Below, piece after piece: positions 9,214 to 61,153 of a stretch of DNA of 64,000 nucleotides. The notes under the pieces are model-generated. The model was not told the origin of the DNA. It worked only from the letters and a program-made list of their open reading frames with translations, and searched no databases. How positions within the stretch are numbered: the first letter of the stretch is position 1; each line of letters starts with the position of its first letter. This DNA is from a virus. Both the position numbers and the translations under genes were made by a program. The stretch lies in IMG/VR virus record IMGVR_UViG_3300020429_000529, positions 262,762-326,761 of that record. One strand, 5' to 3'.

Positions 9214-10866
9214 TTAGTCGGTCAGCGATCCCGACATGAACGACGAGATGACGTTCGGAGTCGCCGTGTCGAAGCCAACAACATCGAGCATTCCCGGGTC
9301 GCTGGGGTCAGCGATCGAGAAGCCGTTGGAGTTCATCGCAACGACTGCGAGCTTTGCATCCTCAACCCTCTTGGCGCGGTAGCGCTTGAGAGCCTCGAAC
9401 GGGTGGATCGAGCCGTAGTAAGTCTCCGAGTCCGTGAGGACCATGAAGGAGTCGAAGTCATCCTGCAGCGACATGGCGTGCGTCATGGGCAGAGAGCAGT
9501 CCGTGCCGCCGTAGGTGAGACCCGACATCTTCTTGAGAACCTGGTCAAGACGCATACGCGGAGTGATTCCAGCGTCCTTGATTCCCGTATCGAAGACCGT
9601 GATCTCGTAGTTGTTCTCGACGCGAGCCGTGACCATGCTGAGTACCGCCGCAGCCTCCGCGCAGGAGACGTTTTCGATACCGCTGCAAGCAACGCCCATC
9701 GAGCCCGAGGCGTCGATTCCGATGAAGTAGTTCTTACCCGTCGCCTCGACGTTGCCGAACGACGCGTAGAAGGCCTCATCCAGAGCATCAACGATGCGCT
9801 GGTCCGCCTGCCAGGTAAGCTTGCCTCGGAATCCTCCGCCCTGCGAGTAGGTCTTGAGCGCTACAAGGACCGAGAGCGGGTGCACTCGGCTCTTGCGCAG
9901 GTACGACTCGTCCGTGAGCTTGTCAAGAACGATCGCACGGTTCGCGCTCTTACCCGTACCAAGCACGCCGTAGCTCGTCAGACGACCGAGCGAACGGATC
10001 AGCGCCGTGAGCGGCATGCCCGGAAGCATGACCTCCCAAACCTCGCCCTTCGAAGCGAACTCCTTCGGGATCAGTTCGTGCGGCAGGTTGATCTTGTCCG
10101 CGCGGTACTTCTCGATGAGGTCAGCGACCTCCTGAGCCGAACCCGCAGCCTTCATCTGCTCCGCAGCGCGGAGAATCTTCAGGTCTGCAGCGATACGCCC
10201 CGGAAGCTTGCCCTTCGTGACGTAATCGTAGACGCGGTTGTGCTTGGTGTCGCCGAACGGGTGAGCCTTACGCATCAGGTCGCGGTGCGACCAGCGAGAC
10301 TGCGTAACGCCCTCCTCGGTAACGCGCTGCGGGTACTTCACAACCTGGTACGCCAGGCGCGAAGCATCCATCTCGTTGTACCAGCGAGCGATCGCCTTAC
10401 GGAGGCCCGTACCCCAGCCGCGCATCGCCGAAACGTACTGCGCGAACTGGAACAGGTGCGTACCGATACGAGCGACCTTCGGCAGCGAAGCGAGCGCGTA
10501 GGAACGCACTTCGGCGTCCTCAGACGCAGCCGCGATCGCAAGAGCGAAGAGCGCAGGCTCGTTCTTCGGAGCGCGTCCGGCGTCAGAGATCGCGACGATC
10601 TCATCGACCACTCGCTTTCCGTCCTCCTTGAGGCAGCGCAGGATGCAGTTGGCGTTGTCGATCGTGAGCTTGCGCTCGCCGACGTAGTAAGTACCGCCCT
10701 CTGAGCCGAGGATCAAGAATCGGCTGAGCCGATCCCAATCGGAGACCTGAAAGACGTACCCGCCTGCGTTGTTCTTGACCTGATTCTTCCCAAGAGCCTT
10801 GCGGGTCTGAGGAGTCGTTCGCATTCCAAAGTGAGTTGAGTACGCCATTTCTGTCACCCCTTTCAA
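9214..10866 (-). CDS. rsr: Ro60/TROVE-domain ribonucleoprotein (Rsr) with C-terminal vWA domain
   Basis: 550 aa; TROVE-like N-terminal region and C-terminal vWA with DxSGS MIDAS (IGIDASGSM); same architecture as Ro60/Rsr. Confidence 0.8.
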   Translation of the reverse strand: MKGVTEMAYSTHFGMRTTPQTRKALGKNQVKNNAGGYVFQVSDWDRLSRFLILGSEGGTYYVGERKLTIDNANCILRCLKEDGKRVVDEIVAISDAGRAPKNEPALFALAIAAASEDAEVRSYALASLPKVARIGTHLFQFAQYVSAMRGWGTGLRKAIARWYNEMDASRLAYQVVKYPQRVTEEGVTQSRWSHRDLMRKAHPFGDTKHNRVYDYVTKGKLPGRIAADLKILRAAEQMKAAGSAQEVADLIEKYRADKINLPHELIPKEFASKGEVWEVMLPGMPLTALIRSLGRLTSYGVLGTGKSANRAIVLDKLTDESYLRKSRVHPLSVLVALKTYSQGGGFRGKLTWQADQRIVDALDEAFYASFGNVEATGKNYFIGIDASGSMGVACSGIENVSCAEAAAVLSMVTARVENNYEITVFDTGIKDAGITPRMRLDQVLKKMSGLTYGGTDCSLPMTHAMSLQDDFDSFMVLTDSETYYGSIHPFEALKRYRAKRVEDAKLAVVAMNSNGFSIADPSDPGMLDVVGFDTATPNVISSFMSGSLTD

Positions 10867-10878
10867 TCGACTCAGAGC

Positions 10879-11424
10879 CTATTCTCTGAGTATGTGAGTG
10901 ATCTCACAAACTAAATCTTCAATGTGCCTGACATTGCCTCTCGGCAACGCAAACCTGTCTCTGTTCCGTCTAATGAATGACCTTATGCGTTGCAGGTCAT
11001 TCTTGTCAAGTTCCCTCGACGAAATTTCTGCCCGAACTGCTTCCTTCCACTCTTTCAGGTCAGATTTCCGAATCTCCAAGCGAGGATCAAACGGAGTCAT
11101 CCAACCAGCTTCGATGTTCGCCTCCATGAAGTCGCTATAAACCCAACTGCTGATCTCGTATTCATCCTCATGGAGGAAATCTCGACCGGCCTTGTGGATC
11201 GAAAGCGCTCGATGGTGCCCGTCTCGTATGTAGAGGGCCTCGTCTTCGAAGCGAGCGATCTGAATCAGTTGTAGGTGCCCTTCTCCTGTTTCATTCAAAT
11301 GGCGCTGAAGCTCTGCAAGGTTGAACCTGCCTCCCTTGCGGACATGTTCGATCATCCGAGAGATTTGGTCAGTGTCTCTCAGATCGGCATGAGTCGGCAA
11401 CAATTCAGCAATGCGCAGCATCAT
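10879..11424 (-). CDS. ParB/sulfiredoxin-like nuclease domain protein
   Basis: IRDGHHR motif (ParB N-terminal DGHHR signature); stop lies 13 nt upstream of the rsr start. Confidence 0.6.
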   Translation of the reverse strand: MMLRIAELLPTHADLRDTDQISRMIEHVRKGGRFNLAELQRHLNETGEGHLQLIQIARFEDEALYIRDGHHRALSIHKAGRDFLHEDEYEISSWVYSDFMEANIEAGWMTPFDPRLEIRKSDLKEWKEAVRAEISSRELDKNDLQRIRSFIRRNRDRFALPRGNVRHIEDLVCEITHILRE

Positions 11425-11490
11425 ACTGCCATTGTATCATGGTCCTATTCACATTGTTCGGAGGAACGTGGGATTCCTCATGTCAGTAAG

Positions 11491-11565
11491 CGGGGTACAC
11501 GGGGATCGAACCCGCAGCCTCCGGATCGACAGTCCGGTGTTCTTCCATGTGCGAACTCCTACCCC
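11491..11565 (-). tRNA. tRNA-Asp(GTC)
   Basis: Manual cloverleaf: GGGGTAG acceptor, anticodon loop CTGTCGA, T-arm GCGGGTTCGATCCCCGT, discriminator G; 75 nt; no encoded CCA. Confidence 0.65.
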
Positions 11566-11579
11566 GAGTTCTATGTAAG

Positions 11580-11653
11580 CGAGGCCGAAGGGACTCGAAC
11601 CCTCAGTCTCCGGATCGACAATCCGGGGCATTCACCAATTATGCTACGACCCC
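11580..11653 (-). tRNA. tRNA-Asp(GTC), second copy with U32 anticodon-loop variant
   Basis: Cloverleaf GGGGTCG...; loop TTGTCGA; T-arm GAGGGTTCGAGTCCCTT; 74 nt. Confidence 0.6.
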
Positions 11654-11799
11654 AAGTTTTCAAGACGGCAGACTGGTCTTTCACCAATCACGCAGCACAA
11701 CAGAGCGCAGTATCAGAAGGTCTTGGCGTCCGATCAAGGACAGATCCTTATGAGTAACCCCGATGTCGCATGCGGTTGTCCCGCATCGCTACCGTCAAA

Positions 11800-11927
11800 A
11801 GCCGCTGGCAGGATTCGAACCTGCATCCTCCCGCTCCATATGCGATAACCGTTTGTCATCGACTCCTTCGCAGGAGTATGGGTTCGACGAACGACCGTTA
11901 GGCGCTCTACCGTTGAGCTACAGCGGC
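11800..11927 (-). ncRNA. tRNA-like RNA (128 nt): canonical acceptor, D-arm and T-arm, but anticodon arm replaced by a structured domain of about 80 nt
   Basis: GCCGCTG/CAGCGGC acceptor, GCTCAACGGTAGAGC D-arm, GCAGGTTCGAATCCTGC T-arm; no 5-bp/7-nt anticodon hairpin; insert has a CTCCT-GCGA-AGGAG GNRA hairpin inside a CCATA/TATGG stem. Confidence 0.5.
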
Positions 11928-11947
11928 AATCAGTATTCAGTTGTAAA

Positions 11948-12073
11948 TGGCCGGGGCAGGATTCGAACCTGCAAGATCAATTTATGAGATTGATGTGTTG
12001 ATAACCTTCATTCATTCGGCTCATTGCTGAGCATGTTATCGACAAAGGGTTGGTGCCATTACACTACCCGACC
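11948..12073 (-). tRNA. tRNA with CAT anticodon (Met/Ile2-type) carrying a D-loop insertion of about 52 nt (126 nt total)
   Basis: Acceptor GGTCGGG/CCCGGCC; D-stem GTGT...ACAC enclosing the insert (GATAAC/GTTATC stem plus GCTCA-GCAA-TGAGC hairpin); anticodon arm TCAAT-CTCATAA-ATTGA; T-arm GCAGGTTCGAATCCTGC. Confidence 0.45.
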
Positions 12074-12087
12074 TAAGTTCCTTTCAA

Positions 12088-12161
12088 TAGCGGATACGGG
12101 GATCGAACCCGTCTCTGCGGCTTATGAAACCGCCCTCTGCACACCAGCCGAGTCATCCGCA
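12088..12161 (-). tRNA. tRNA with CAT anticodon (Met-type); 1:72 is U-U unpaired
   Basis: Anticodon arm GCGGT-TTCATAA-GCCGC; T-arm ACGGGTTCGATCCCCGT; acceptor 6 bp GCGGAT/ATCCGC plus T1/T72 mismatch; 74 nt. Confidence 0.5.
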
Positions 12162-12380
12162 ATCTAAACACGGTTTGCAGGTCATTCTCCTGCCGGGCCT
12201 ACCCTCGGATCAGTCCGAGATCGGTCAGCGTTTGCAACCGCTCCTGCTTCTCGCAGGCGGAACCGTAAAACGTAGCGCCGTCTTTCGACGAGCGCTACAT
12301 GGGGCCGGTTGCGGGTGCCGAAGCACCAGCGTGGCCTCCACCACTTGCTCTTTTGCTTGAGAAGCAAGAAACTCGTTCAA

Positions 12381-12454
12381 TAGCGGGGGAAGGATTCGAA
12401 CCTCCGACCTTTTGGTTATGAGCCAAATGAGCTACCAGACTGCTCTACCCCGCA
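12381..12454 (-). tRNA. tRNA-Met(CAT), initiator-like
   Basis: Near-identical to bacterial tRNA-fMet: GCGGGG-TA-GAGCAGTCTGGTAGCTC...CTCATAA...GGTTCGAATCC; 1:72 U-U mismatch; 74 nt. Confidence 0.6.
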
Positions 12455-12532
12455 ATCAATAAAACAGATATGTTGGCGTTGCTTGGACCTTTGTGTGAGA
12501 TAAGTTAACCAATCAACTTCGACCTGTTTTAA

Positions 12533-12604
12533 TCAGAGTGACAGGAATCGAACCTGCTTAGACCTGGCCCCAAACCAGGCGACCTGCCAATGGCCCACAC
12601 TCTG
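12533..12604 (-). tRNA. tRNA-Pro(TGG)
   Basis: C1-G72, A73; anticodon arm CCTGG-TTTGGGG-CCAGG; T-arm GCAGGTTCGATTCCTGT; 72 nt. Confidence 0.65.
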
Positions 12605-12780
12605 TAATCGATGCTTGCTCCGTCCTCACAACCTCTTACTCTTGGACAGAATCGGGAGCTTACCCCGACAGACTTGCCTTCTTAGGGCGTGCGATCGTGC
12701 GCCGAGGTTTGGTAACGCCGATCTTATCTCCCCGCCTAAACGGGTCTCTGCAAACATCATCTGCTATTCGATTGTCAAAG

Positions 12781-12855
12781 TCGGAGTGATTGGATTCGAA
12801 CCAACGACCTTCTGTCCCCCAGACAGACGCGCTCACCAAGCTGCGCCACACTCCG
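12781..12855 (-). tRNA. tRNA-Pro(GGG)
   Basis: C1-G72, A73; anticodon arm TCTGT-CTGGGGG-ACAGA; T-arm GTTGGTTCGAATCCAAT; 75 nt. Confidence 0.65.
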
Positions 12856-13059
12856 AAACAAGAACAAGTATGGGGTGCCAAGGGAGACCCGACAGATAAT
12901 GTAAGCTCCTGCCTTTGACAGCAGTACGAGACACTTTGCGATTCGCTGGGCTCTGCCGATCTCAGCAAGCTGAGATTTACCCGAGAATCATGTCTCAAGC
13001 TTTTCGCGTAATTGATAACCCTACAGCTTCGACCTGTTCTTCTTATTCAGTTTTCAAAG

Positions 13060-13133
13060 TCAGGATGAAAGGATTTGAACCTTCGACCTCTTACTCCCGA
13101 AGCAAGCGCTCTGCCAAGCTGAGCTACACCCTG
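13060..13133 (-). tRNA. tRNA-Pro(CGG)
   Basis: C1-G72, A73; anticodon arm CTTGC-TTCGGGA-GTAAG; T-arm GAAGGTTCAAATCCTTT; 74 nt. Confidence 0.6.
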
Positions 13134-13247
13134 ATGATTCGCAAGTATGGGGCGGCAGAAGAGTTTGGCTTTCGCCACTTTGTGATCAATACAAGGTGTT
13201 AACCTTCAAACCTTCGACCTGCGAGTCGTTCTTATTCAGTTGTCAAG

Positions 13248-13353
13248 CGCCCTCGATTGGATTCGAACCAACTGTAACCAGGATAACCGTTAACTGTCGG
13301 CCCAATCGGGCATGTTGTCGCCAACGGATCGTGACCCTTGCGGGTCCGAGGGC
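13248..13353 (-). ncRNA. tRNA-like RNA (106 nt): acceptor stem and T-arm present, GNRA hairpin immediately after 5' acceptor strand, no anticodon arm identified
   Basis: GCCCTCG/CGAGGGC acceptor; GTTGGTTCGAATCCAAT T-arm; GACCC-GCAA-GGGTC hairpin; GCCC-GATT-GGGC hairpin. Confidence 0.45.
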
Positions 13354-13894
13354 ATTCTAAAAAAAAGCAGGTATGGGTCGCAGAAGGCGTTACGTTTCAA
13401 GTTAACCTTGTTGCATCGACCTGCAATCGTTCTGTGTTTTGTACGAGGCGTGGGATTCCTCGGTCTGTCAGTGTCTCATCTATCGATCATCGGCAGAGAA
13501 GACTCCCAAGATTCCACGCAGTTTCCTACGAAAATCTTGGACTTTATTCAGTTGTGGAAGTGAGATCGACCTGCTTAGGGGCTCAGATTAGGCCGCCGTA
13601 TCAGTAAACCCGAACGGCGGCAATGCAGGGTCTTCTGCACTTCCGTGGCGATTCGGTTGATCGCCAATCATCTTGTTGATGGTCCGTTCCATGGTCTCCT
13701 CGGTCGTTCAGAGAGGGGCTGTCCCCTCATATAACGCAGAGCTTAGCAGTTTGTTCCGCCCTGTCAAGAGCCTCTATCGACTTTTTTCGCTCTCGACATG
13801 AATGGCAGTATACCAACTCAGTCGTCACCTGCAACCACTTCTTCGTCAGTGGCCAGAATTCCTTCTTGAATATCCAAAAATCTGCCGAACAAGG

Positions 13895-14530
13895 TCATTG
13901 GGTCGTCATGCCGACTTCGGCGATCCCCATTTCTTTGCGGATCTCGGTCGAAGACAACCCGATCAGCGCATCATTGAGAGGCTCTTCGGGTACAAAGTTG
14001 ATCGGCAACTGACCTGGCAGATCGTTGATCGTCCAGAGCTTGTCGTTCATGCGCCTCGGGTAGACATGGAACAAAGCTCTGATGCCCTGCGTCCCGACTG
14101 TCGAGTGCATGGAGACGATCCGCAGCGCCGTATCGATACCGATATGGATATGGATGTCTCGGACAGCAGCAAGAACGCCAGTCTTGTCGTAGAAGAGAGG
14201 ATGCTTCGAGACGATCAGCGGACCTTCGTCGTTGAACTGAGTCGCTCGCCCTTCCATGATCTTCGACTCGATCGTGCCCTTGTTGGCTCGGTCGATTGAC
14301 ATCTCGTAGCAGACATGGGCCGTAGGACCGGCGATCTCCGCTGCTCGCTGGTAGATGGCTCGATGGCCGTCATGGATGGGATTGAAAGATCCTGGTACGA
14401 GATGCAGTACCGAATCGCCGAACGGATGTTCGTCGCCGTTGATCGGATCGATCGCGCCGTTGGGATGGCGGACAAAAGCAAACAACGGGTCGTTCTGACA
14501 GGTGTGGTATGCGATCTCAAAGGTATACAT
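13895..14530 (-). CDS. nicotinamide/nicotinate mononucleotide adenylyltransferase (NMNAT, cytidylyltransferase superfamily)
   Basis: GSFNPIHDGH, the (H/T)xGH nucleotidyltransferase motif; start overlaps the upstream stop. Confidence 0.65.
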   Translation of the reverse strand: MYTFEIAYHTCQNDPLFAFVRHPNGAIDPINGDEHPFGDSVLHLVPGSFNPIHDGHRAIYQRAAEIAGPTAHVCYEMSIDRANKGTIESKIMEGRATQFNDEGPLIVSKHPLFYDKTGVLAAVRDIHIHIGIDTALRIVSMHSTVGTQGIRALFHVYPRRMNDKLWTINDLPGQLPINFVPEEPLNDALIGLSSTEIRKEMGIAEVGMTTQ

Positions 14531-15225: not shown

Positions 15226-16788
15226 CTAAGCGGCGGCTGCCGCCTTCATTGCAACGATCTCGGGCAGTTCGGCTCGTTCGCGGACCTCAGCAAAAGTCCA
15301 TTCCTGAACGATCTCCCCGTCTCGGAAGACCTCAACAAGCAGGTCTCCGCCGAAATCATCAACATTCTCATTGAGGGTATTGATGGTCCGCAGCGTACCG
15401 CCATCGTTGACGAGCGCCAGCAGACCTCGCTTGCTGTTCTTGCTGCTGCCGGTCTTGGGTTGCTTGTAGACCTCAAAGCCTTCGCCGTTGATCTCGCTGT
15501 AGCAAGCCTTGAAAGCGCAAGCGTAGGTGTCTCGGTTCATCTTCTGCAACAGAGCGCCGCCGCTGCCGAAGGCCAGGTTCTCGACAGACCATCCGGCATC
15601 GACAACCGCTTGCAGAATCGCTCGGAGGCTTCGCCAGTTGATACCATCGCCCTGAATGACTCGAATCGAGTCATGCAGAACCTTGTAGCCCTTGGCGTTT
15701 TCGGTGTACCCGAACTTCTCGCCGAGGACTTCGAGAACCTTGGGGACGATCTCGGTCGGTTCGCCCGAATCGGGACGAACAACCAGAACGCCCTCTCGTT
15801 CCATGATCTGTTCCTTGAGTTCTCCGCCCCAGACATCGGCGCAGAGTCCGAACAGGTCATAGGAATCAGAAACGCAGGCAACAAAGCCCGTTGGGAACTG
15901 TTCGACCAGACGGCGACAGATTTCTCGTTCGCCTTGCGGACCCTTGATGGTCATGATCGAGTGTTCGGTTGCGGGGATGCTGTAGCCGCTCATTGTTCGG
16001 CTGTAGAACTCGTCCCATGCTCGGAACGAATCATCTGCATCCCAGTCGCCATGAGGAGTAATGCCAATTCGATCGTATTCGAGCAGCTTCTCGAACTCGT
16101 CGCCCTGGTAGAACTGCGTTGTCATCTCGATCGCAGCCATCGTATCGGTGCCTGCAAAGTTGACGAGATGGGCCGCTCCGCCCAGCGCTGCGCTTTCGAC
16201 GCTCGATACGCCTCGGTAGCCGAAGTCATGCAGGCGACTCGGCATGAGGATGGGGATCAGATGATCCTCGGTCGTCATCTGCATGAACTCGAAGATGGTC
16301 TGCTTGCAGGAGCGAGACAGCGAGGCGACGGTCATTGGATACCAGACTTGTACGAGAATGGTTTCCAAGAAGTTCGTCAGCCAGAAGCAGTTCGGGTCGG
16401 TGTTCTCGATCATCATGAGGACATTCGAGACCGGAACGACCGTACCTTCGGGGACGGCCCGAATCGTTACCGGCAGTCGTCCGCCATGGTTCTTGATGAT
16501 GTATCGCCAGCCCTCTTCATTGAAGAGCGTTTCATCGCCCATGAAGTGGTGCTTACAGAAGGCCTTGATGCGAGGCAGATCATGGTAGCCAACGACGCCG
16601 CCTCGGAAGAACCGCTTGAGGAAGTATTGCAGACCGAAGAAGACGGTTTCGTCAGAGAAGTCTGAACCCGCCCTCGCCTCGAAATACGAGACCAGCCGCT
16701 CAACGCCTTCAACATAAAGACGATGATGCGTGATCTTGTAGCTGTCGGTAAAGTTGGGCAACGAAAGATGAAGTGCCTGCGCTACCAT
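15226..16788 (-). CDS. nadV: nicotinamide phosphoribosyltransferase (NAMPT)
   Basis: 520 aa; N-terminal SYKITHH...YFLKRF and overall NAMPT/NadV-like sequence; adjacent to NMNAT as in phage NAD salvage modules. Confidence 0.75.
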   Translation of the reverse strand: MVAQALHLSLPNFTDSYKITHHRLYVEGVERLVSYFEARAGSDFSDETVFFGLQYFLKRFFRGGVVGYHDLPRIKAFCKHHFMGDETLFNEEGWRYIIKNHGGRLPVTIRAVPEGTVVPVSNVLMMIENTDPNCFWLTNFLETILVQVWYPMTVASLSRSCKQTIFEFMQMTTEDHLIPILMPSRLHDFGYRGVSSVESAALGGAAHLVNFAGTDTMAAIEMTTQFYQGDEFEKLLEYDRIGITPHGDWDADDSFRAWDEFYSRTMSGYSIPATEHSIMTIKGPQGEREICRRLVEQFPTGFVACVSDSYDLFGLCADVWGGELKEQIMEREGVLVVRPDSGEPTEIVPKVLEVLGEKFGYTENAKGYKVLHDSIRVIQGDGINWRSLRAILQAVVDAGWSVENLAFGSGGALLQKMNRDTYACAFKACYSEINGEGFEVYKQPKTGSSKNSKRGLLALVNDGGTLRTINTLNENVDDFGGDLLVEVFRDGEIVQEWTFAEVRERAELPEIVAMKAAAAA

Positions 16789-17016: not shown

Positions 17017-18129
17017 TCAGTGGCCGAAGTATTTCATGCTGATTTCCTTGATCTCGTCCTGGGAGGCAAGGATAGCAAGATTCGCCTGTTCAACGAGAGG
17101 GCTTCCTTGACGGAAAGCGATGCCGTAGTTCTGCGGGGCGAATGTCGTATCCGCCATGACGACGACATCTTGACCTTCTCCGTTCGCGAAAAACGCCAGG
17201 TTCGGGACATCGCCAACAACAGCCTCGACTCGGCCCATGATAAGAGCAGCGATACACTGGTCGTAGTTGTCGTACTCCCTGACGATGCCATTGTAGAACT
17301 CAACCTCATCGACGCTGGTCGTTCCGCTGACGACAGCGATCTTCTTGCCCTTGAGATCGGAGGGACCATCGATCCGAGCTTCAAACTGCTGAACAACATT
17401 GAACGAGGTAATCGAAGCAGTCAGCGAACTGACGAGGATTGCAACGCAGAAGAAGCAGAGGACAGCAACGATTCGAGCGGCAACGCGCTTGGGGTAAACA
17501 TCGCCGTAGCCGATTGTCGAACCTGTTGTAAAGGCGAGCCAGACAGAGTTTGCGCTGCCCTTCATGACTTCCATAAAGGTCAGTCCGTCGTCGTCATTAG
17601 CATCTTGCTTGCGCTGATCGTCTGTAATGTAGAGAAGAAAACCAAAGACGCAGAGAGCCGCCAAGAACAATGCGCAGATGACGAGAAGGTTGACGATCAG
17701 GGGGATGCGGACTTCGATCCATGCTTGAATCGATGAAACAAAATCCTGGTTCGATTCTTCGGCGATCATAATGCCGAGACCCGTATTCATGTACGGTTGA
17801 GAGAAGTCGTAGATCTGCTCTCGTTCGAGATTGATCGTAATCCCGTTCATGATGCCGTCGATCTGATTGTCGCCCTGAAGCGCCGTGAACAGGTCGGCAA
17901 AGCGATCAAAATGAACAACCTCGACTTGCCAGTTGGCTGTGTCGCCGATCGTTGACAGAACTTCTGCATCGAAACCAGACATTGAGCCGTTTTCGCCTTC
18001 GATGAAGAAGGGTTCTTCGGCGACGATACCGATTCGAACAGTTCTCGGTTCAGAGACCTGAATGGGATCGCTCTGCGCCGATGCGACTGTTGCAAAGAGT
18101 GCGATGACTGCAAGAACGAGAGTCTTCAT
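17017..18129 (-). CDS. GluR0-like ligand-gated potassium channel (SBP lobe 1 - M1-P-M2 with TIGYGD filter - SBP lobe 2)
   Basis: Signal peptide MKTLVLAVIALFATVASA; family-3 SBP-like halves interrupted by two TM helices and pore helix with TTGSTIGYGDVYP; AGGAGA 7 nt upstream of ATG 18129. Confidence 0.65.
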   Translation of the reverse strand: MKTLVLAVIALFATVASAQSDPIQVSEPRTVRIGIVAEEPFFIEGENGSMSGFDAEVLSTIGDTANWQVEVVHFDRFADLFTALQGDNQIDGIMNGITINLEREQIYDFSQPYMNTGLGIMIAEESNQDFVSSIQAWIEVRIPLIVNLLVICALFLAALCVFGFLLYITDDQRKQDANDDDGLTFMEVMKGSANSVWLAFTTGSTIGYGDVYPKRVAARIVAVLCFFCVAILVSSLTASITSFNVVQQFEARIDGPSDLKGKKIAVVSGTTSVDEVEFYNGIVREYDNYDQCIAALIMGRVEAVVGDVPNLAFFANGEGQDVVVMADTTFAPQNYGIAFRQGSPLVEQANLAILASQDEIKEISMKYFGH

Positions 18130-18144
18130 CTCGGGTCTCCTGAG

Positions 18145-18180
18145 TTTGAAAAAGCCCCTCGTCCTGCGGAACAGGACGAG
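18145..18180 (-). terminator. rho-independent terminator downstream of the PspA-like gene
   Basis: CTCGTCCTG-cggaa-CAGGACGAG hairpin followed on the minus strand by GGGGCTTTTTC. Confidence 0.7.
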
Positions 18181-18200
18181 AGGCAAAGTGAGGGGGTGAT

Positions 18201-23884: not shown

Positions 23885-24727
23885 TTACGCTCTCGCTCGG
23901 TACTTCCTGTCCCATGCCTTGAGCTTGTCAAGGTCAAAGTTGGCGTTGTTGTTTCGCAGCTTCCCTTTGCCCCAGAACATCTCGATCATCCGATCCTTCG
24001 GTAACAGCTTCGTCGTCTTGTCGTCAGTGGTCGGAGACCATCCGAGACGAGCAACGCAGTTGAGTATAGCGTCGGGATGGTAGGATTTCATCAACTCGTC
24101 AAGAGATAGTCCATCGTCTCGCTTTGACAGTTTTCTGCCCTCGTGCATGATAAGACCGACATGGTAGAAGTCTGGCAGATCAGCGCCGAGCGCAGCAAAC
24201 AGCATCGCCTGGAATGACGTATTCGTCGTATGGTCCTTGCCTCGGATGACGCAATCGATTCCAAGCTCTATGTCGTCGATGACGGTTGCGAAGTTGTAAG
24301 TCGGCGTCCCGTCTTGTTTTCGTAGGATCTTGTTGCCAGCAATGCTCTTGTCGGTATCAGAGATACAGATCTGACCAGCGATGCCGTCTGTCCAGTGATC
24401 GAGATCGACGCCTCGGAGATCGCTCAGAACAACTCCGTAACCATTGTCGCTTGCCCATCCATCTGCGATGAGCCGATCGATGTAGCTGTTGTAGATGTCG
24501 ATACGATCGCTTTGATGAACGAGATCATCGTAGTCGAGACCAAAGTGCCCGAGCATGCTGACGATCTCTTTTGTATGGATCGCTTTTGATCGAGATTTAT
24601 CGGTGTCATCGATCCGTACAACAAAAGAGCCGCCCGTTGAACGAGCGGCTAACCAGTTTTGGTATGCTGTTCTAAGCGAGCCGAGATGCGGCGATCCCGT
24701 TGGCGATGGTGCGAATCTCGTTTTCAT
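23885..24727 (-). CDS. truncated class-I glutamyl-tRNA synthetase paralog (glutamyl-Q tRNA(Asp) synthetase-like, catalytic domain only)
   Basis: HIGH-type RFAPSPTGSPHLGS; KLSKR (KMSKS-type, as AKLSKQ in GluQRS/YadB); 280 aa with no anticodon-binding domain. Confidence 0.7.
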   Translation of the reverse strand: MKTRFAPSPTGSPHLGSLRTAYQNWLAARSTGGSFVVRIDDTDKSRSKAIHTKEIVSMLGHFGLDYDDLVHQSDRIDIYNSYIDRLIADGWASDNGYGVVLSDLRGVDLDHWTDGIAGQICISDTDKSIAGNKILRKQDGTPTYNFATVIDDIELGIDCVIRGKDHTTNTSFQAMLFAALGADLPDFYHVGLIMHEGRKLSKRDDGLSLDELMKSYHPDAILNCVARLGWSPTTDDKTTKLLPKDRMIEMFWGKGKLRNNNANFDLDKLKAWDRKYRARA

Positions 24728-24743: not shown

Positions 24744-24818
24744 TGACGCTGAAGGGAATCGAACCCTCGGACTTCTCCTTGAGAGGGAGAGATTTCTACC
24801 AGCAGAAACTACAGCGCC
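24744..24818 (-). tRNA. tRNA-Glu(CTC)
   Basis: Acceptor GGCGCTG/CAGCGTC; anticodon arm TCTCC-CTCTCAA-GGAGA; T-arm GAGGGTTCGATTCCCTT; 75 nt; 17 nt upstream of the GluRS-like start. Confidence 0.6.
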
Positions 24819-24823
24819 TCGAA

Positions 24824-24895
24824 TGACCCCTACGGGACTCGAACCCGTATTACAGCCTTGAAAGGGCCGCGTCCTAACCATTAGACGAAGGGGCC
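24824..24895 (-). tRNA. tRNA-Glu(TTC)
   Basis: GGCCCCT...; D GTCT-AATGGTTA-GGAC; anticodon arm CGGCC-CTTTCAA-GGCTG; T-arm ACGGGTTCGAGTCCCGT; 72 nt. Confidence 0.6.
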
Positions 24896-24905
24896 AGATT
24901 GTAAA

Positions 24906-24980
24906 TGACGCTGACGGGACTCGAACCCGCGAACTTCGGGATGAAAACCCGAGATTTCTGCCCACAGAAACTACAGCGCC
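24906..24980 (-). tRNA. tRNA-Glu(TTC), U32/U38 loop variant
   Basis: Same acceptor as 24744..24818; anticodon arm TCGGG-TTTTCAT-CCCGA; T-arm GCGGGTTCGAGTCCCGT; 75 nt. Confidence 0.55.
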
Positions 24981-24987
24981 ATGTAAA

Positions 24988-25062
24988 GTGACCCCACCGG
25001 GATTCGAACCCGGATTCCGACCTTGAGAGGGTCGTGTCCTAAACCTGCTTAGACGACAGGGC
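24988..25062 (-). tRNA. tRNA-Glu(CTC)
   Basis: GGCCCTG...; anticodon arm CGACC-CTCTCAA-GGTCG; T-arm CCGGGTTCGAATCCCGG; three G-U pairs in acceptor; 75 nt. Confidence 0.5.
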
Positions 25063-25075
25063 CAAAATTTGAAAG

Positions 25076-25150
25076 CACTCCCAAGGGGATTCGAACCCCT
25101 ATCGCTTGGATGAGAACCAAGTATCCTGAACCAGATTAGACGATGGGAGC
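25076..25150 (-). tRNA. tRNA-Glu(CTC), U32/U38 loop variant
   Basis: GCTCCCA...; anticodon arm CTTGG-TTCTCAT-CCAAG; T-arm AGGGGTTCGAATCCCCT; 75 nt. Confidence 0.5.
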
Positions 25151-59837: not shown

Positions 59838-60176
59838 ATGAACGCAAATCGCATGAAGATTCTAACCGAAGCGCTTAGGTCGGGTCGCTTTAAGCAATCT
59901 CAAGATCCTGAGATTCTAAATGAGAGATGCGACGATCCTGAGCAGTGCTGCGTCGGTGGAGTAGTCTTGAATCTTTTACAGGATTATGGACTGACTCGCA
60001 AGCCTATATGCGCAAGAAAATGGCTTGGCATGAGCGAAGCAGAAATAAGTCGATTTGCCGCATGGACAAGTCAAATGAACCTGCTAAAAACGTTCGATGA
60101 AATCGCAGATTTGATCGATGACGAGGTTCAGAAGCAGACCACTGACAGCGGATTCGCTATGGTATGGAGACCATGA
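59838..60176 (+). CDS. hypothetical protein
   Basis: 112-aa ORF. Confidence 0.4.
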   Translation: MNANRMKILTEALRSGRFKQSQDPEILNERCDDPEQCCVGGVVLNLLQDYGLTRKPICARKWLGMSEAEISRFAAWTSQMNLLKTFDEIADLIDDEVQKQTTDSGFAMVWRP

Positions 60177-61153
60177 TTCGTTACGGCCTTTGCTGCATCT
60201 CGAACGAGCTTCAACGCCAAGGCTCGAAGTTCCAGACAATGACCTTCAAGCGATTCAGCGCGCTTGATCGAGATGAAGCTGTCGCAACGCTCTGCGGACG
60301 GTACGCCAACAATCTCCGAGTCATCAGCGCCATTCTTGACCAATGCGCCGAGCATGGCTGGATCTATCGAGCTTCATCCGATATTTTTCCGCTGATGACT
60401 CATCCTGACTCTGGCCTCGTCTACGACGACCTGCCTAATGCTGCTGAACTCGATGCTCTGTTCGCAGAGTGCGCCGATAAGATCAGCAGGCACGGTATCC
60501 GAGTCTCTTGTCATCCAGATCAGTTCAATGTCCTCGCTTCCAAGAATGATCGGGCGGTCGAAAACACGATCCGAGAACTCGATCATCATGGTTGGTTCAT
60601 GGACAAGATCGGCGCTCCTCGGAGCTATGAAGCTCCCATCAACATCCATGTCAACTGCTCAAGCGACTCGCCCGAAGTCGTTGCTCGTCGCTTCGCCAGA
60701 AACCTCGCTCGCTGCTCTGAGGCTGTCCGTAGCCGCTTGGCCGTCGAGAACGAAGACAAGGGCATCTGGACCGCCGAAGCCCTCTGCGGCGTCCTCTCGC
60801 TCGAAGCGAACGTTCCTGTCACCTTCGACAATCTCCATCATGCCTGCAATCCCGGCAGCATCAGCGAACAGGCGGCTTTTGAGCTATGCTACCTGACTTG
60901 GCTGCATTATGGAGATATCGTTCCTCTCTTTCATTACTGCGAGGCGCTACCAGACCAGCCCAACCCTCGCAAGCATGCAGAGATGCCTGTTGGCTATCCG
61001 AACAACTACGGCATGCCCGTTGACTTCGATATTGAACTCAAGGGCAAGGACGATGCTATCAAGCAGCTTGAGATCAATGTCGCTCCTGTCCGGGAAGAGC
61101 AACGGGCGAGGGCCGCTGAGTTTGTCCGCCAGGCAGAAAGCATTGGAATATGA
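60164..61153 (+). CDS. uvdE: UV damage endonuclease (UvdE/UvsE family)
   Basis: MIRYGLCCISNEL N-terminus and TIM-barrel endonuclease-like length and pattern. Confidence 0.6.
   Translation: METMIRYGLCCISNELQRQGSKFQTMTFKRFSALDRDEAVATLCGRYANNLRVISAILDQCAEHGWIYRASSDIFPLMTHPDSGLVYDDLPNAAELDALFAECADKISRHGIRVSCHPDQFNVLASKNDRAVENTIRELDHHGWFMDKIGAPRSYEAPINIHVNCSSDSPEVVARRFARNLARCSEAVRSRLAVENEDKGIWTAEALCGVLSLEANVPVTFDNLHHACNPGSISEQAAFELCYLTWLHYGDIVPLFHYCEALPDQPNPRKHAEMPVGYPNNYGMPVDFDIELKGKDDAIKQLEINVAPVREEQRARAAEFVRQAESIGI

Follow-up and report, generated by a model that had tools for sequence, protein, structure and literature searches.

A 64,000-nucleotide stretch of viral DNA (IMG/VR record IMGVR_UViG_3300020429_000529, positions 262,762 to 326,761; this whole stretch is called the window below) encodes three tRNA-shaped RNAs, E1, E2, and E3, that are probably Ro60-associated Y RNAs of the YrlA type laid out in tRNA gene order. 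Ro60, a conserved protein of RNA quality control that is also an autoantigen in humans, has Y RNAs as its obligate partners. In each of the three elements the ends close an open acceptor stem of 7 base pairs (bp), as in a tRNA, and the chain between the acceptor strands holds a structured insert of 55–70 nucleotides (nt) that is homologous to the Y-RNA core, keeps its helices among relatives, and is linked to a Ro60 gene. Judged from its sequence, this insert is the Ro60-binding core of a Y RNA and not an intron. A first-pass annotation of the same DNA had listed Y RNA-like tRNA mimics, tRNAs with non-canonical mini-introns, and decoy or regulatory tRNA-like RNAs as candidates. The nearby Ro60 gene, a Y-RNA signature in the inserts, and colinearity with permuted YrlA support the Y RNA-like mimic, and the other candidates gained no support.

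All three elements follow one order of segments. From the 5' end, an acceptor strand is followed by UA, the D arm, an A-rich linker, and the 5' strand of a helix called P2. The middle consists of a joiner of about 12 nt ending in CAU, a helix called P1 with a 4-nt loop, CGA, and the 3' strand of P2. The 3' part consists of UUAUC, an optional small arm with a 7-nt loop (the V arm), the T arm, and the second acceptor strand. The perfect acceptor stem and T arm that had been described for each element are confirmed on the minus strand at the coordinates in Table 1. The acceptor stems are paired at all seven positions, as GCCGCUG/CAGCGGC in E1, GGUCGGG/CCCGGCC in E2 (with one G-U), and GCCCUCG/CGAGGGC in E3; acceptor strands taken from different elements pair at only 3–5 of the seven positions in trans. 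The T arm GGUUCGAAUCC is common to all three. P2 is formed by UCGUU and AACGG in E1, by CCUU and AAGG in E2, and by CCGUUGGC and GUUAACGG in E3, and the P1 hairpins are ACUCCU-GCGA-AGGAGU, GCUCA-GCAA-UGAGC, and GCCC-GAUU-GGGC, respectively.

This assignment alters the earlier description in three places. GNRA-capped hairpins had been reported in every insert, and all three exist as written; however, GACCC-GCAA-GGGUC of E3 is not the equivalent of the other two, because it occupies the D-arm position, and its true counterpart is GCCC-GAUU-GGGC at 13300–13311. The insert of E2 had been placed inside the D loop and followed by a normal CAU arm. The CAU arm does follow, but homologues place the insert between a GUG/CAC D arm and that arm. 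Finally, no 5-bp/7-nt anticodon hairpin had been seen in E1 or E3, which is true of E3, whereas E1 has a vestigial one, CGC-AUAUGGA-GCG (3 bp/7 nt). E3 is without a D arm and without an anticodon-like arm, and it is a reduced acceptor/T minihelix plus the Ro arm.

Folding agrees with the assignment. The minimum free energy (MFE) fold of E2 recovers the acceptor stem, P1, the CAU arm, and the T arm, and that of E3 yields exactly the assigned helices (z = -3.5). Read from the sequence, E1 and E2 keep the nucleotides of the tRNA elbow, namely U8, A14, G18G19, the UUCGAAU loop, and A15:U48. The Rfam tRNA model (RF00005) scores 50.9 bits on E1, but only if 69 nt at the anticodon-arm position are passed over. 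On E2 it reaches a sub-threshold 26.9 bits via a poor alternative fold, the same one that ARAGORN reports as tRNA-Met at 11948–12021, and on E3 it finds no match at a permissive threshold. A decoding tRNA would be expected to score at least 29 bits with RF00005 and to have an anticodon arm of 5 bp and 7 nt that stacks on the D stem, with an anticodon conserved among orthologues. E1–E3 do not show this combination, and their anticodon-like loops differ among orthologues.

The window encodes a Ro60 orthologue about 0.9 kilobases (kb) downstream of E1 on the same strand (Pfam TROVE 1.6e-38, vWA_Ro60 5.8e-58; thousands of Ro60 homologues are present in databases), and all three elements lie on its strand within the roughly 4 kb expected of a YrlA. 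Phage and bacterial Ro60 genes have flanking Y RNAs on the same strand that carry the motif GNCGAA(N0-1)G and then YUAY about 10 nt on (PMC4201824), and in each genome one of them, YrlA, has a tRNA-like domain as well (Chen et al. 2014, PMC4201824). The inserts of E1–E3 contain this signature as GUCGAUGACAAACGGUUAUC, GCCGAAUGAAUGAAGGUUAUC, and GCCGACAGUUAACGGUUAUC. Their core is helix P1, a (G)NCGA(A/U) motif, helix P2, and UUAUC, the last lying directly 3' of the P2 3' strand in all three elements and agreeing with YUAY. The fit to GNCGAA(N0-1)G is exact in E2 (GCCGAAUG) and in three free-standing Y RNA-like RNAs of the same region, Yb, Yc, and Yd (GUCGAAG); E1 (GUCGAUGA) and E3 (GCCGACAG) deviate at the sixth base. 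The composite GNCGA-N6-16-GRUUAWC has 7 matches in the 64-kb window, every one of them on the minus strand and inside 11844–13420, against an average of 1.3 matches for both strands together in dinucleotide-shuffled versions of the entire window. Across 80 IMG/VR Ro60 loci, the composite signature gave 125 regular-expression matches (a number that includes overlapping matches and a few duplicate loci), 122 of them on the Ro60 strand and mostly no more than 2 kb upstream.

YrlA, a Y RNA that mimics tRNA, is known from Salmonella, Mycobacterium, and actinophages (PMC4201824; Wang et al. 2018, bioRxiv 10.1101/312249). Classical YrlAs were identified by eye upstream of Ro60 in Gordonia phage BearBQ, mycobacteriophage Catera, and the IMG/VR loci L052, L053, and L034. 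They consist of the same segments as E1–E3, but P1 is where the RNA begins and ends, and a loop closes the acceptor helix (in BearBQ, CAUCGGAC-GCGA-GUCCGAUG). The YrlAs of BearBQ, Catera, L052, and L053 were permuted in silico, by cutting in the acceptor loop and joining at P1, and aligned with E1–E3 and four IMG/VR relatives. The permuted RNAs are colinear with E1–E3 over the full length; they share the acceptor strand, UA, the D arm, NUAAAA, P2, and a joiner ending in CAUG in the 5' part, and P1, CGA, P2', UUAUC, the V arm, the T arm, and the acceptor strand in the 3' part. Because the permuted classical YrlAs align colinearly, E1–E3 are read as YrlA in un-permuted tRNA order. The first-pass annotation had suspected such a difference in topology, and indeed the ends of E1–E3 close an acceptor stem and not the Ro helix. 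The Rfam YrlA model (RF02553) has no match in 13140–13620, and at its gathering score it also misses the classical YrlAs of BearBQ, Catera, L034, L052, and L053. It is therefore unusable for a census.

The V arm that follows UUAUC has a stem of 3–6 bp and a loop of 7 nt, whose second position is usually U. The form is common to classical YrlAs and tRNA-order elements (for example, L086:2251-2386, L087:2172-2323, and L052:7768-7904). The resemblance of this arm to a vestigial anticodon arm suggests that an ancestral tRNA acquired the Ro module between its D and anticodon arms.

Homologues of E1–E3 were sought in 80 IMG/VR Ro60 loci and 80 loci of bacterial genomes. The viral loci were gathered by an alignment-based Ro60 scan, a scan with the single Ro60 protein having given nothing, and the bacterial loci are mostly metagenome-assembled genomes (MAGs) of Myxococcota, Chloroflexota, Armatimonadota, Gemmatimonadota, and Verrucomicrobiota. 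The closest Ro60 relatives (59–64% identity) are encoded in L001, L004, and L005, which are phage-like contigs with the same arrangement and clear orthologues of E1–E3; the orthologue of E3 at L001:6678-6830 has an identical acceptor sequence. A covariance model, R1, was seeded solely from the elements of L006, L009, L010, and L015, with six helices supplied. In the window region it recovers E1 with 53.9 bits (E = 9e-14), E2 with 51.2 bits (5e-13), and E3 with 40.8 bits (3e-10), and it matches none of the 8 ordinary tRNAs in 11400–13700. Many full-length elements of 105–145 nt were found with R1 beside Ro60 in viral contigs and bacterial MAGs, on the Ro60 strand in 136/136 bacterial and 88/89 viral matches.

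Covariation was examined in 109 aligned R1 matches, 75 of which bear the module. Pairing reaches 99.3% in the acceptor stem, 98.5% in P2, and 99.1% in P1, with many compensatory changes, in an alignment that was fitted to the R1 model itself. For example, one P2 pair occurs as GC27/CG15/GU14/UA12/AU7, and a P1 pair as GC61/AU9. When the pairing partner is slid by 1–3 columns, pairing falls to 38–50%, and none of 500 shuffles reaches the observed values. P1 varies between 3 and 8 bp, and its cap has 3–5 nt in 62 of the 75 elements (GNRA in 13). After P1, CG is present in 70/75 homologues and CGA in 42/75, and UUAYC follows P2. The stem of the V arm is kept among orthologues, but its loop is not: the CUCAUAA of E2 stands against CAAUCAA in L001c, and the AUAUGGA of E1 against ACAUGGA in L001b and CUCUUAA in L004b, and the loops of L006, L009, L010, and L015 all differ. 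A census by heuristic script, with rough numbers and a sample biased to relatives of this Ro60, counted tRNA-order elements in 19/80 viral and 46/80 bacterial loci and classical YrlA in 7/80 and 22/80, respectively. A covariance model of classical YrlA was dropped, as the MAFFT alignment was too poorly registered for a trustworthy structure line.

Two other readings would make decoding tRNAs of these RNAs. If E1–E3 were intron-containing tRNAs, the insert would be removed by an endonuclease and a ligase, or by self-cleavage. E2 has a perfect CUCAUAA anticodon arm, relatives show Phe-like (CUGAAAA), Lys-like (CUCUUAA), and Cys-like (UUGCAAC) loops beside the insert, and ARAGORN, when permitted to call introns, takes E1 for a tRNA-His whose intron has 56 nt. 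However, that tRNA-His(AUG) call is forced, as its anticodon stem has just 3 bp and contains two mismatches and its anticodon would begin with A34, and the same program calls E2 inconsistently as Asn and does not call E3 at all. The site of the insert also varies, as it lies between the D and anticodon arms in some elements, at 31/32 in others, and takes the place of both arms in still others, and the anticodon-like loops differ between orthologues, often without tRNA-like positions 33 and 37. As had been argued earlier, the insert is too small for a group I intron, which has at least about 200 nt with a P3–P9 core and sits in the anticodon loop, and no Intron_gpI match, nor any other Rfam intron or ribozyme family, was found at E <= 10. 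Moreover, it is a conserved, Ro60-linked Y-RNA core that is also found free-standing. An intron of the bulge-helix-bulge type, with 3-nt bulges on either side of a 4-bp helix where exon meets intron, calls for an archaeal or eukaryal splicing endonuclease; the setting here is phage or bacterial, and neither RtcB, another RNA ligase, nor a splicing endonuclease was found among the 44 window open reading frames (ORFs) scanned with Pfam or PHROGs. An intron is thus very unlikely. It is also unlikely, though a little less so, that the RNAs have two functions, at least E2 being aminoacylated and decoding AUG or AUA with the Ro60-binding arm as a fifth arm. E2 keeps the 7-bp acceptor stem, G18G19, the T loop, a 6-bp anticodon stem, and the canonical CUCAUAA loop, and its insert lies outside the anticodon arm. 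On the other hand, an arm of about 58 nt at position 26 would break the stack of D stem and anticodon stem that decoding needs, the D stem of E2 is down to 3 bp, the apparent E2 orthologue at L001:5904-6030 has a CAAUCAA loop without U33, and the array already has two ordinary tRNA-Met(CAU) genes.

The remaining readings dispense with E1–E3 as separate, functional RNAs, and we give very little credence to either. In one, a classical YrlA is read across the E2–E1 junction, from the T arm of E2 through a closed stem made of the 3' acceptor strand of E2 and the 5' acceptor strand of E1 to the D arm of E1. The Rfam YrlA model aligns exactly there (11904–11974, 24.2 bits), and CCCGGC pairs with GCCG-UG at 5/6 positions. 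Yet this score is far under the 69-bit gathering threshold, and trans pairing between E2 and E1 (P1 4/5, P2 3/4, with the 5'-to-3' assignment tested) is no better than in other trans combinations, whereas all helices are perfect in cis (acceptor 7/7, P1 5–6 bp, P2 4–5 bp). Many homologues, moreover, stand alone, so that a partner for such trans pairing is absent (L006, L009, L010, L015). In the other, the elements are functionless, degenerate pseudo-tRNAs that arose by recombination between tRNA and Y-RNA genes. Its support comes from the repetitive array, from the lost D arm of E3, and from drift in the anticodon-like loops. Against this, the 75 homologues in phages and several bacterial phyla keep all helices by compensatory changes, which contradicts the degenerate pseudo-tRNAs without covariation that the earlier note had allowed for, and the linkage to Ro60 and its strand are kept.

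Several observations weigh against reading E1–E3 as YrlA-type Y RNAs in tRNA order. Ro60 binding is predicted from a motif, and E1 and E3 have GNCGAU and GNCGAC in place of GNCGAA. E3 cannot form a tRNA elbow because it is without a D arm. The best score of the Rfam YrlA model on E1–E3 is the one just cited, and it falls across the E2–E1 junction only. Because E2 keeps a textbook CUCAUAA arm, that element alone could still decode. The fitting of the covariation counts to R1 and the heuristic nature of the census of the two topologies count on the same side.

Table 1. Features of the Y-RNA and tRNA region and of the Ro60 gene (positions in the window)
Feature	Position	Strand	Parts	Basis
E1, probable tRNA-order Y RNA, 128 nt	11800–11927	minus	acceptor 11921–11927 / 11801–11807; D arm 11904–11918; P2 11890–11894 / 11849–11853; P1 11872–11877 / 11862–11867; cap GCGA 11868–11871; CGA 11859–11861; UUAUC 11844–11848; vestigial V arm 11832–11844; T arm 11808–11824	R1 model, Rfam tRNA, colinearity with permuted YrlA
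E2, probable tRNA-order Y RNA, 126 nt	11948–12073	minus	acceptor 12067–12073 / 11949–11955; short D arm 12053–12064; P2 12045–12048 / 12005–12008; P1 12028–12032 / 12019–12023, cap GCAA; GCCGAAUG motif 12013–12020; UUAUC 12000–12004; anticodon-like arm, CUCAUAA loop, 11976–11994; T arm 11956–11972	R1 model, MFE fold
E3, probable reduced tRNA-order Y RNA, 106 nt	13248–13353	minus	acceptor 13347–13353 / 13249–13255; extra hairpin CCC-GCAA-GGG 13335–13344; P2 13320–13327 / 13287–13294; P1 13308–13311 / 13300–13303, cap GAUU; CGA 13297–13299; UUAUC 13282–13286; T arm 13256–13272	R1 model, MFE fold
Ya, small Y RNA-like hairpin	13367–13424	minus	terminal P1 GCAGGU/ACCUGC, then CGAUG, AAGG-UUAAC	motif match, MFE fold closes with P1
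Yb, Y RNA-like hairpin	13139–13224	minus	P1 UCGCAGGU/ACUUGCGA (8 bp), GUCGAAGG motif, GGUUAAC	
Yc, Y RNA-like RNA, 182 nt	12860–13041	minus	P1 AAGAACAGGU/ACUUGUUCUU (10 bp), GUCGAAGC motif, GGUUAUC	
Yd, Y RNA-like hairpin	12461–12530	minus	P1 AAAACAGGU/AUCUGUUUU (9 bp), GUCGAAGU motif, GGUUAAC	
Ordinary tRNA array (Asp x2, Met x2, Pro x3)	11490–13133	minus		ARAGORN, Rfam tRNA
Ro60 (Rsr) orthologue, presumed partner of all seven RNAs	9214–10866	minus		Pfam
Conserved 181-residue ORF between RNA array and Ro60	10879–11424	minus		

The three elements lie inside an array of ordinary tRNA genes or at its upstream edge. The array has eight genes if one dubious Met call is counted, and seven Y RNAs, E1–E3 and the smaller Ya–Yd, are interleaved with the tRNA genes. 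Ya–Yd are closed between their ends by helices of 6, 8, 10, and 9 bp, with flanking pairs that vary compensatorily between copies; CGAA or CGAU lies in an internal loop right after the 5' strand, and MFE folding recovers this layout unaided. An alternative 3' partner for CAGGUCGAAG, the UUGACAACUG found after tRNAs, was tried and dropped; CCCAUACUUG extends with compensatory changes. The 3' end of Yb lies 5 nt short of tRNA-Pro(cgg), that of Yc 4 nt short of tRNA-Pro(ggg), and that of Yd 5 nt short of tRNA-Met, so cleavage of each tRNA by RNase P would set these ends. The tRNAs and the interleaved Y RNAs are probably co-transcribed, and tRNA processing would then define the ends of the Y RNAs. 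A run of eight U residues (13359–13366, minus strand) after Ya and 5 nt before E3 may act as a terminator, or it may be a 3' oligo-U tail such as metazoan Y RNAs have.

A scan of 10800–13900 for sigma-70 promoters and intrinsic terminators gave nothing above chance. With no more than 2 mismatches, the 13-mer ACAACUGAAUAAG is found on the minus strand at 11932–11944, 13042–13054, 13231–13243, and 13543–13555. Three of these array copies come directly after E2, tRNA-Pro(cgg), and E3, and the fourth lies upstream. The window holds 6 matches where 0.9 are expected, and UUGA(C/A)AACUGAAUA is also present 5' of elements in L001, L004, and L009. The spacing is unlike sigma-70, and the 13-mer may serve as a promoter of the phage or as a signal for processing.

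Both Ro60 binding and processing by the tRNA pathway are predictions, and the following working model may be drawn from them. E1–E3 would be transcribed together with the tRNA array and, like tRNAs, be matured by RNase P, 3' exonuclease trimming, and the CCA enzyme. In vivo, RNase P cuts the YrlA of M. smegmatis, whose acceptor helix has 7 bp, and CCA is added to it. The capped P1-CGA-P2 arm, at the position of the anticodon stem, would dock on the phage Ro60 through the shared motif, in a manner likened to the GGUCCGA/GNCGAA strand in the frog and Deinococcus Ro60 complexes. The L-shaped tRNA-like half, by analogy, might be a handle that resists nucleases and brings a tRNA-binding effector to Ro60. 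Candidates are PNPase, for which RYPER, including a phage Ro60, is a precedent, and an RNA-repair enzyme. In the same array, Ya–Yd would use the ordinary open-helix layout.

The 181-residue ORF between the RNA array and the Ro60 gene has counterparts of 43–44% identity at the same position in L001, L004, and L005, and it may encode a partner of the Ro60 system. It has an RDGHHR motif and a weak, sub-threshold match to ParBc_2 (E = 0.017). No sequence relative was found in the PDB, and only 3 word-sharing homologues were found; an AlphaFold model, with a predicted local distance difference test (pLDDT) score of 47.9, was too poor for a fold search. The plus strand at 60164–61153 encodes a UvdE UV-damage endonuclease (7e-38), which is of note since Ro60 and Y RNAs of bacteria have a link to UV survival.

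The window probably belongs to a phage genome of very large size. Identical Ro60 proteins are encoded on marine contigs of about 0.5 Mb, and the window itself contains genes for a sigma factor, an HNH endonuclease, a Dam methylase, and nicotinamide phosphoribosyltransferase (NAMPT), along with many ORFs without a family match. Just upstream of the RNA array, NAMPT (15226–16788, minus strand) and a nearby cytidylyltransferase-like ORF, possibly NMNAT (13895–14530), resemble an NAD salvage pair. An ORF at 17017–18186 (minus strand) combines SBP_bac_3, ligand-gated ion-channel, and potassium-channel pore domains as in a GluR0-like glutamate-receptor channel, apparently in a phage genome. At 23885–24727 (minus strand), a 280-residue protein consists of a class I Glu/Gln-tRNA synthetase catalytic domain alone (1e-54) and is GluQRS-like, being without an anticodon-binding domain. 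Its gene is immediately downstream of five tRNA-Glu genes (24744–25150), one of which, at 24906–24980, was found by Rfam and missed by ARAGORN.

A full-text literature search found no description of a tRNA-order Y RNA, within a coverage that was incomplete, so a prior description is possible and priority is uncertain. We propose tentatively, with confidence somewhat short of even, that un-permuted, tRNA-order YrlA is an undescribed topological class that is at least as common as classical YrlA in the sampled Ro60 clade, is matured by the tRNA pathway, could carry CCA or an amino acid, and is the missing intermediate in the origin of YrlA. The bacterial tRNA-like YrlA has been described solely as a circularly permuted tRNA mimic, with a proposed origin from tRNA dimers. 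Tandem tRNA-order copies hold a classical YrlA across their junction, and therefore duplication followed by trimming of the outer halves would give the permuted form; the E2–E1 junction is exactly what the Rfam YrlA model recognises. This route would refine the published "dimeric tRNA" model. Two to four tandem tRNA-order elements, an arrangement from which permuted YrlA could arise, are present beside Ro60 in bacterial MAGs of Polyangiaceae and Chloroflexota (L144:5852-6540, L118:2180-2466, L147:2190-2479, L135:1321-1609).

If the proposal is true, permutation is not essential for YrlA function, and there is a concrete duplication-permutation route to YrlA. RNase P and the CCA enzyme would make these RNAs, and their free acceptor end would be far from Ro60, which raises the question of charging or of the recruitment of tRNA-binding enzymes. 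Seven Y RNAs among the tRNAs of a phage-like genome of about 0.5 Mb suggest a heavy investment in the Ro60 ribonucleoprotein. In the present annotation of phages and MAGs, such elements are overlooked or wrongly labelled as intron-containing tRNAs or pseudo-tRNAs.

Several known systems resemble these RNAs in part. Ya–Yd have the same terminal stem and CGAA internal loop as YrlB, Yrn2, and Yrl1/Yrl2 of the Thermus phage phiLo, which likewise lie upstream of Ro60 (PMC12135203); these small Y RNAs are without a tRNA-like domain, whereas E1–E3 carry one. Circularly permuted tRNA genes of Cyanidioschyzon and the two-piece permuted tmRNA are precedents for two gene orders of one RNA. Those are processed back to the standard form, and nothing suggests such an interconversion for E1–E3. 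Yrn1 of D. radiodurans binds Ro60, has T (and D-like) elements with D before T, and is co-transcribed with a tRNA. However, in Yrn1 a terminal Ro helix takes the acceptor position, with an anticodon-like arm between D and T, whereas E1–E3 have a real acceptor stem and an internal Ro helix.

The closest likeness is to YrlA itself. Like YrlA (RF02553), E1–E3 are adjacent to Ro60 on the same strand and have P1, P2 (the "AC stem"), YUAY, an optional V arm, a T arm, and an acceptor helix of the 7-bp type; the GNCGAA of YrlA is exact in E2 and altered at the sixth base in E1 and E3, and UA and the D arm are likewise shared, though E3 has no D arm. YrlA, however, ends in the Ro helix, has a loop-closed acceptor stem, and carries its T arm 5' of the D arm, whereas E1–E3 end in the acceptor stem, have a loop-capped Ro helix, and carry the D arm 5' of the T arm. 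The YrlA cut by RNase P also has an open, CCA-tailed 7-bp acceptor stem on a Ro-binding module, so tRNA enzymes do accept such RNAs. It is an RNA in two pieces with both helices open, whereas E1–E3 would each be one continuous chain.

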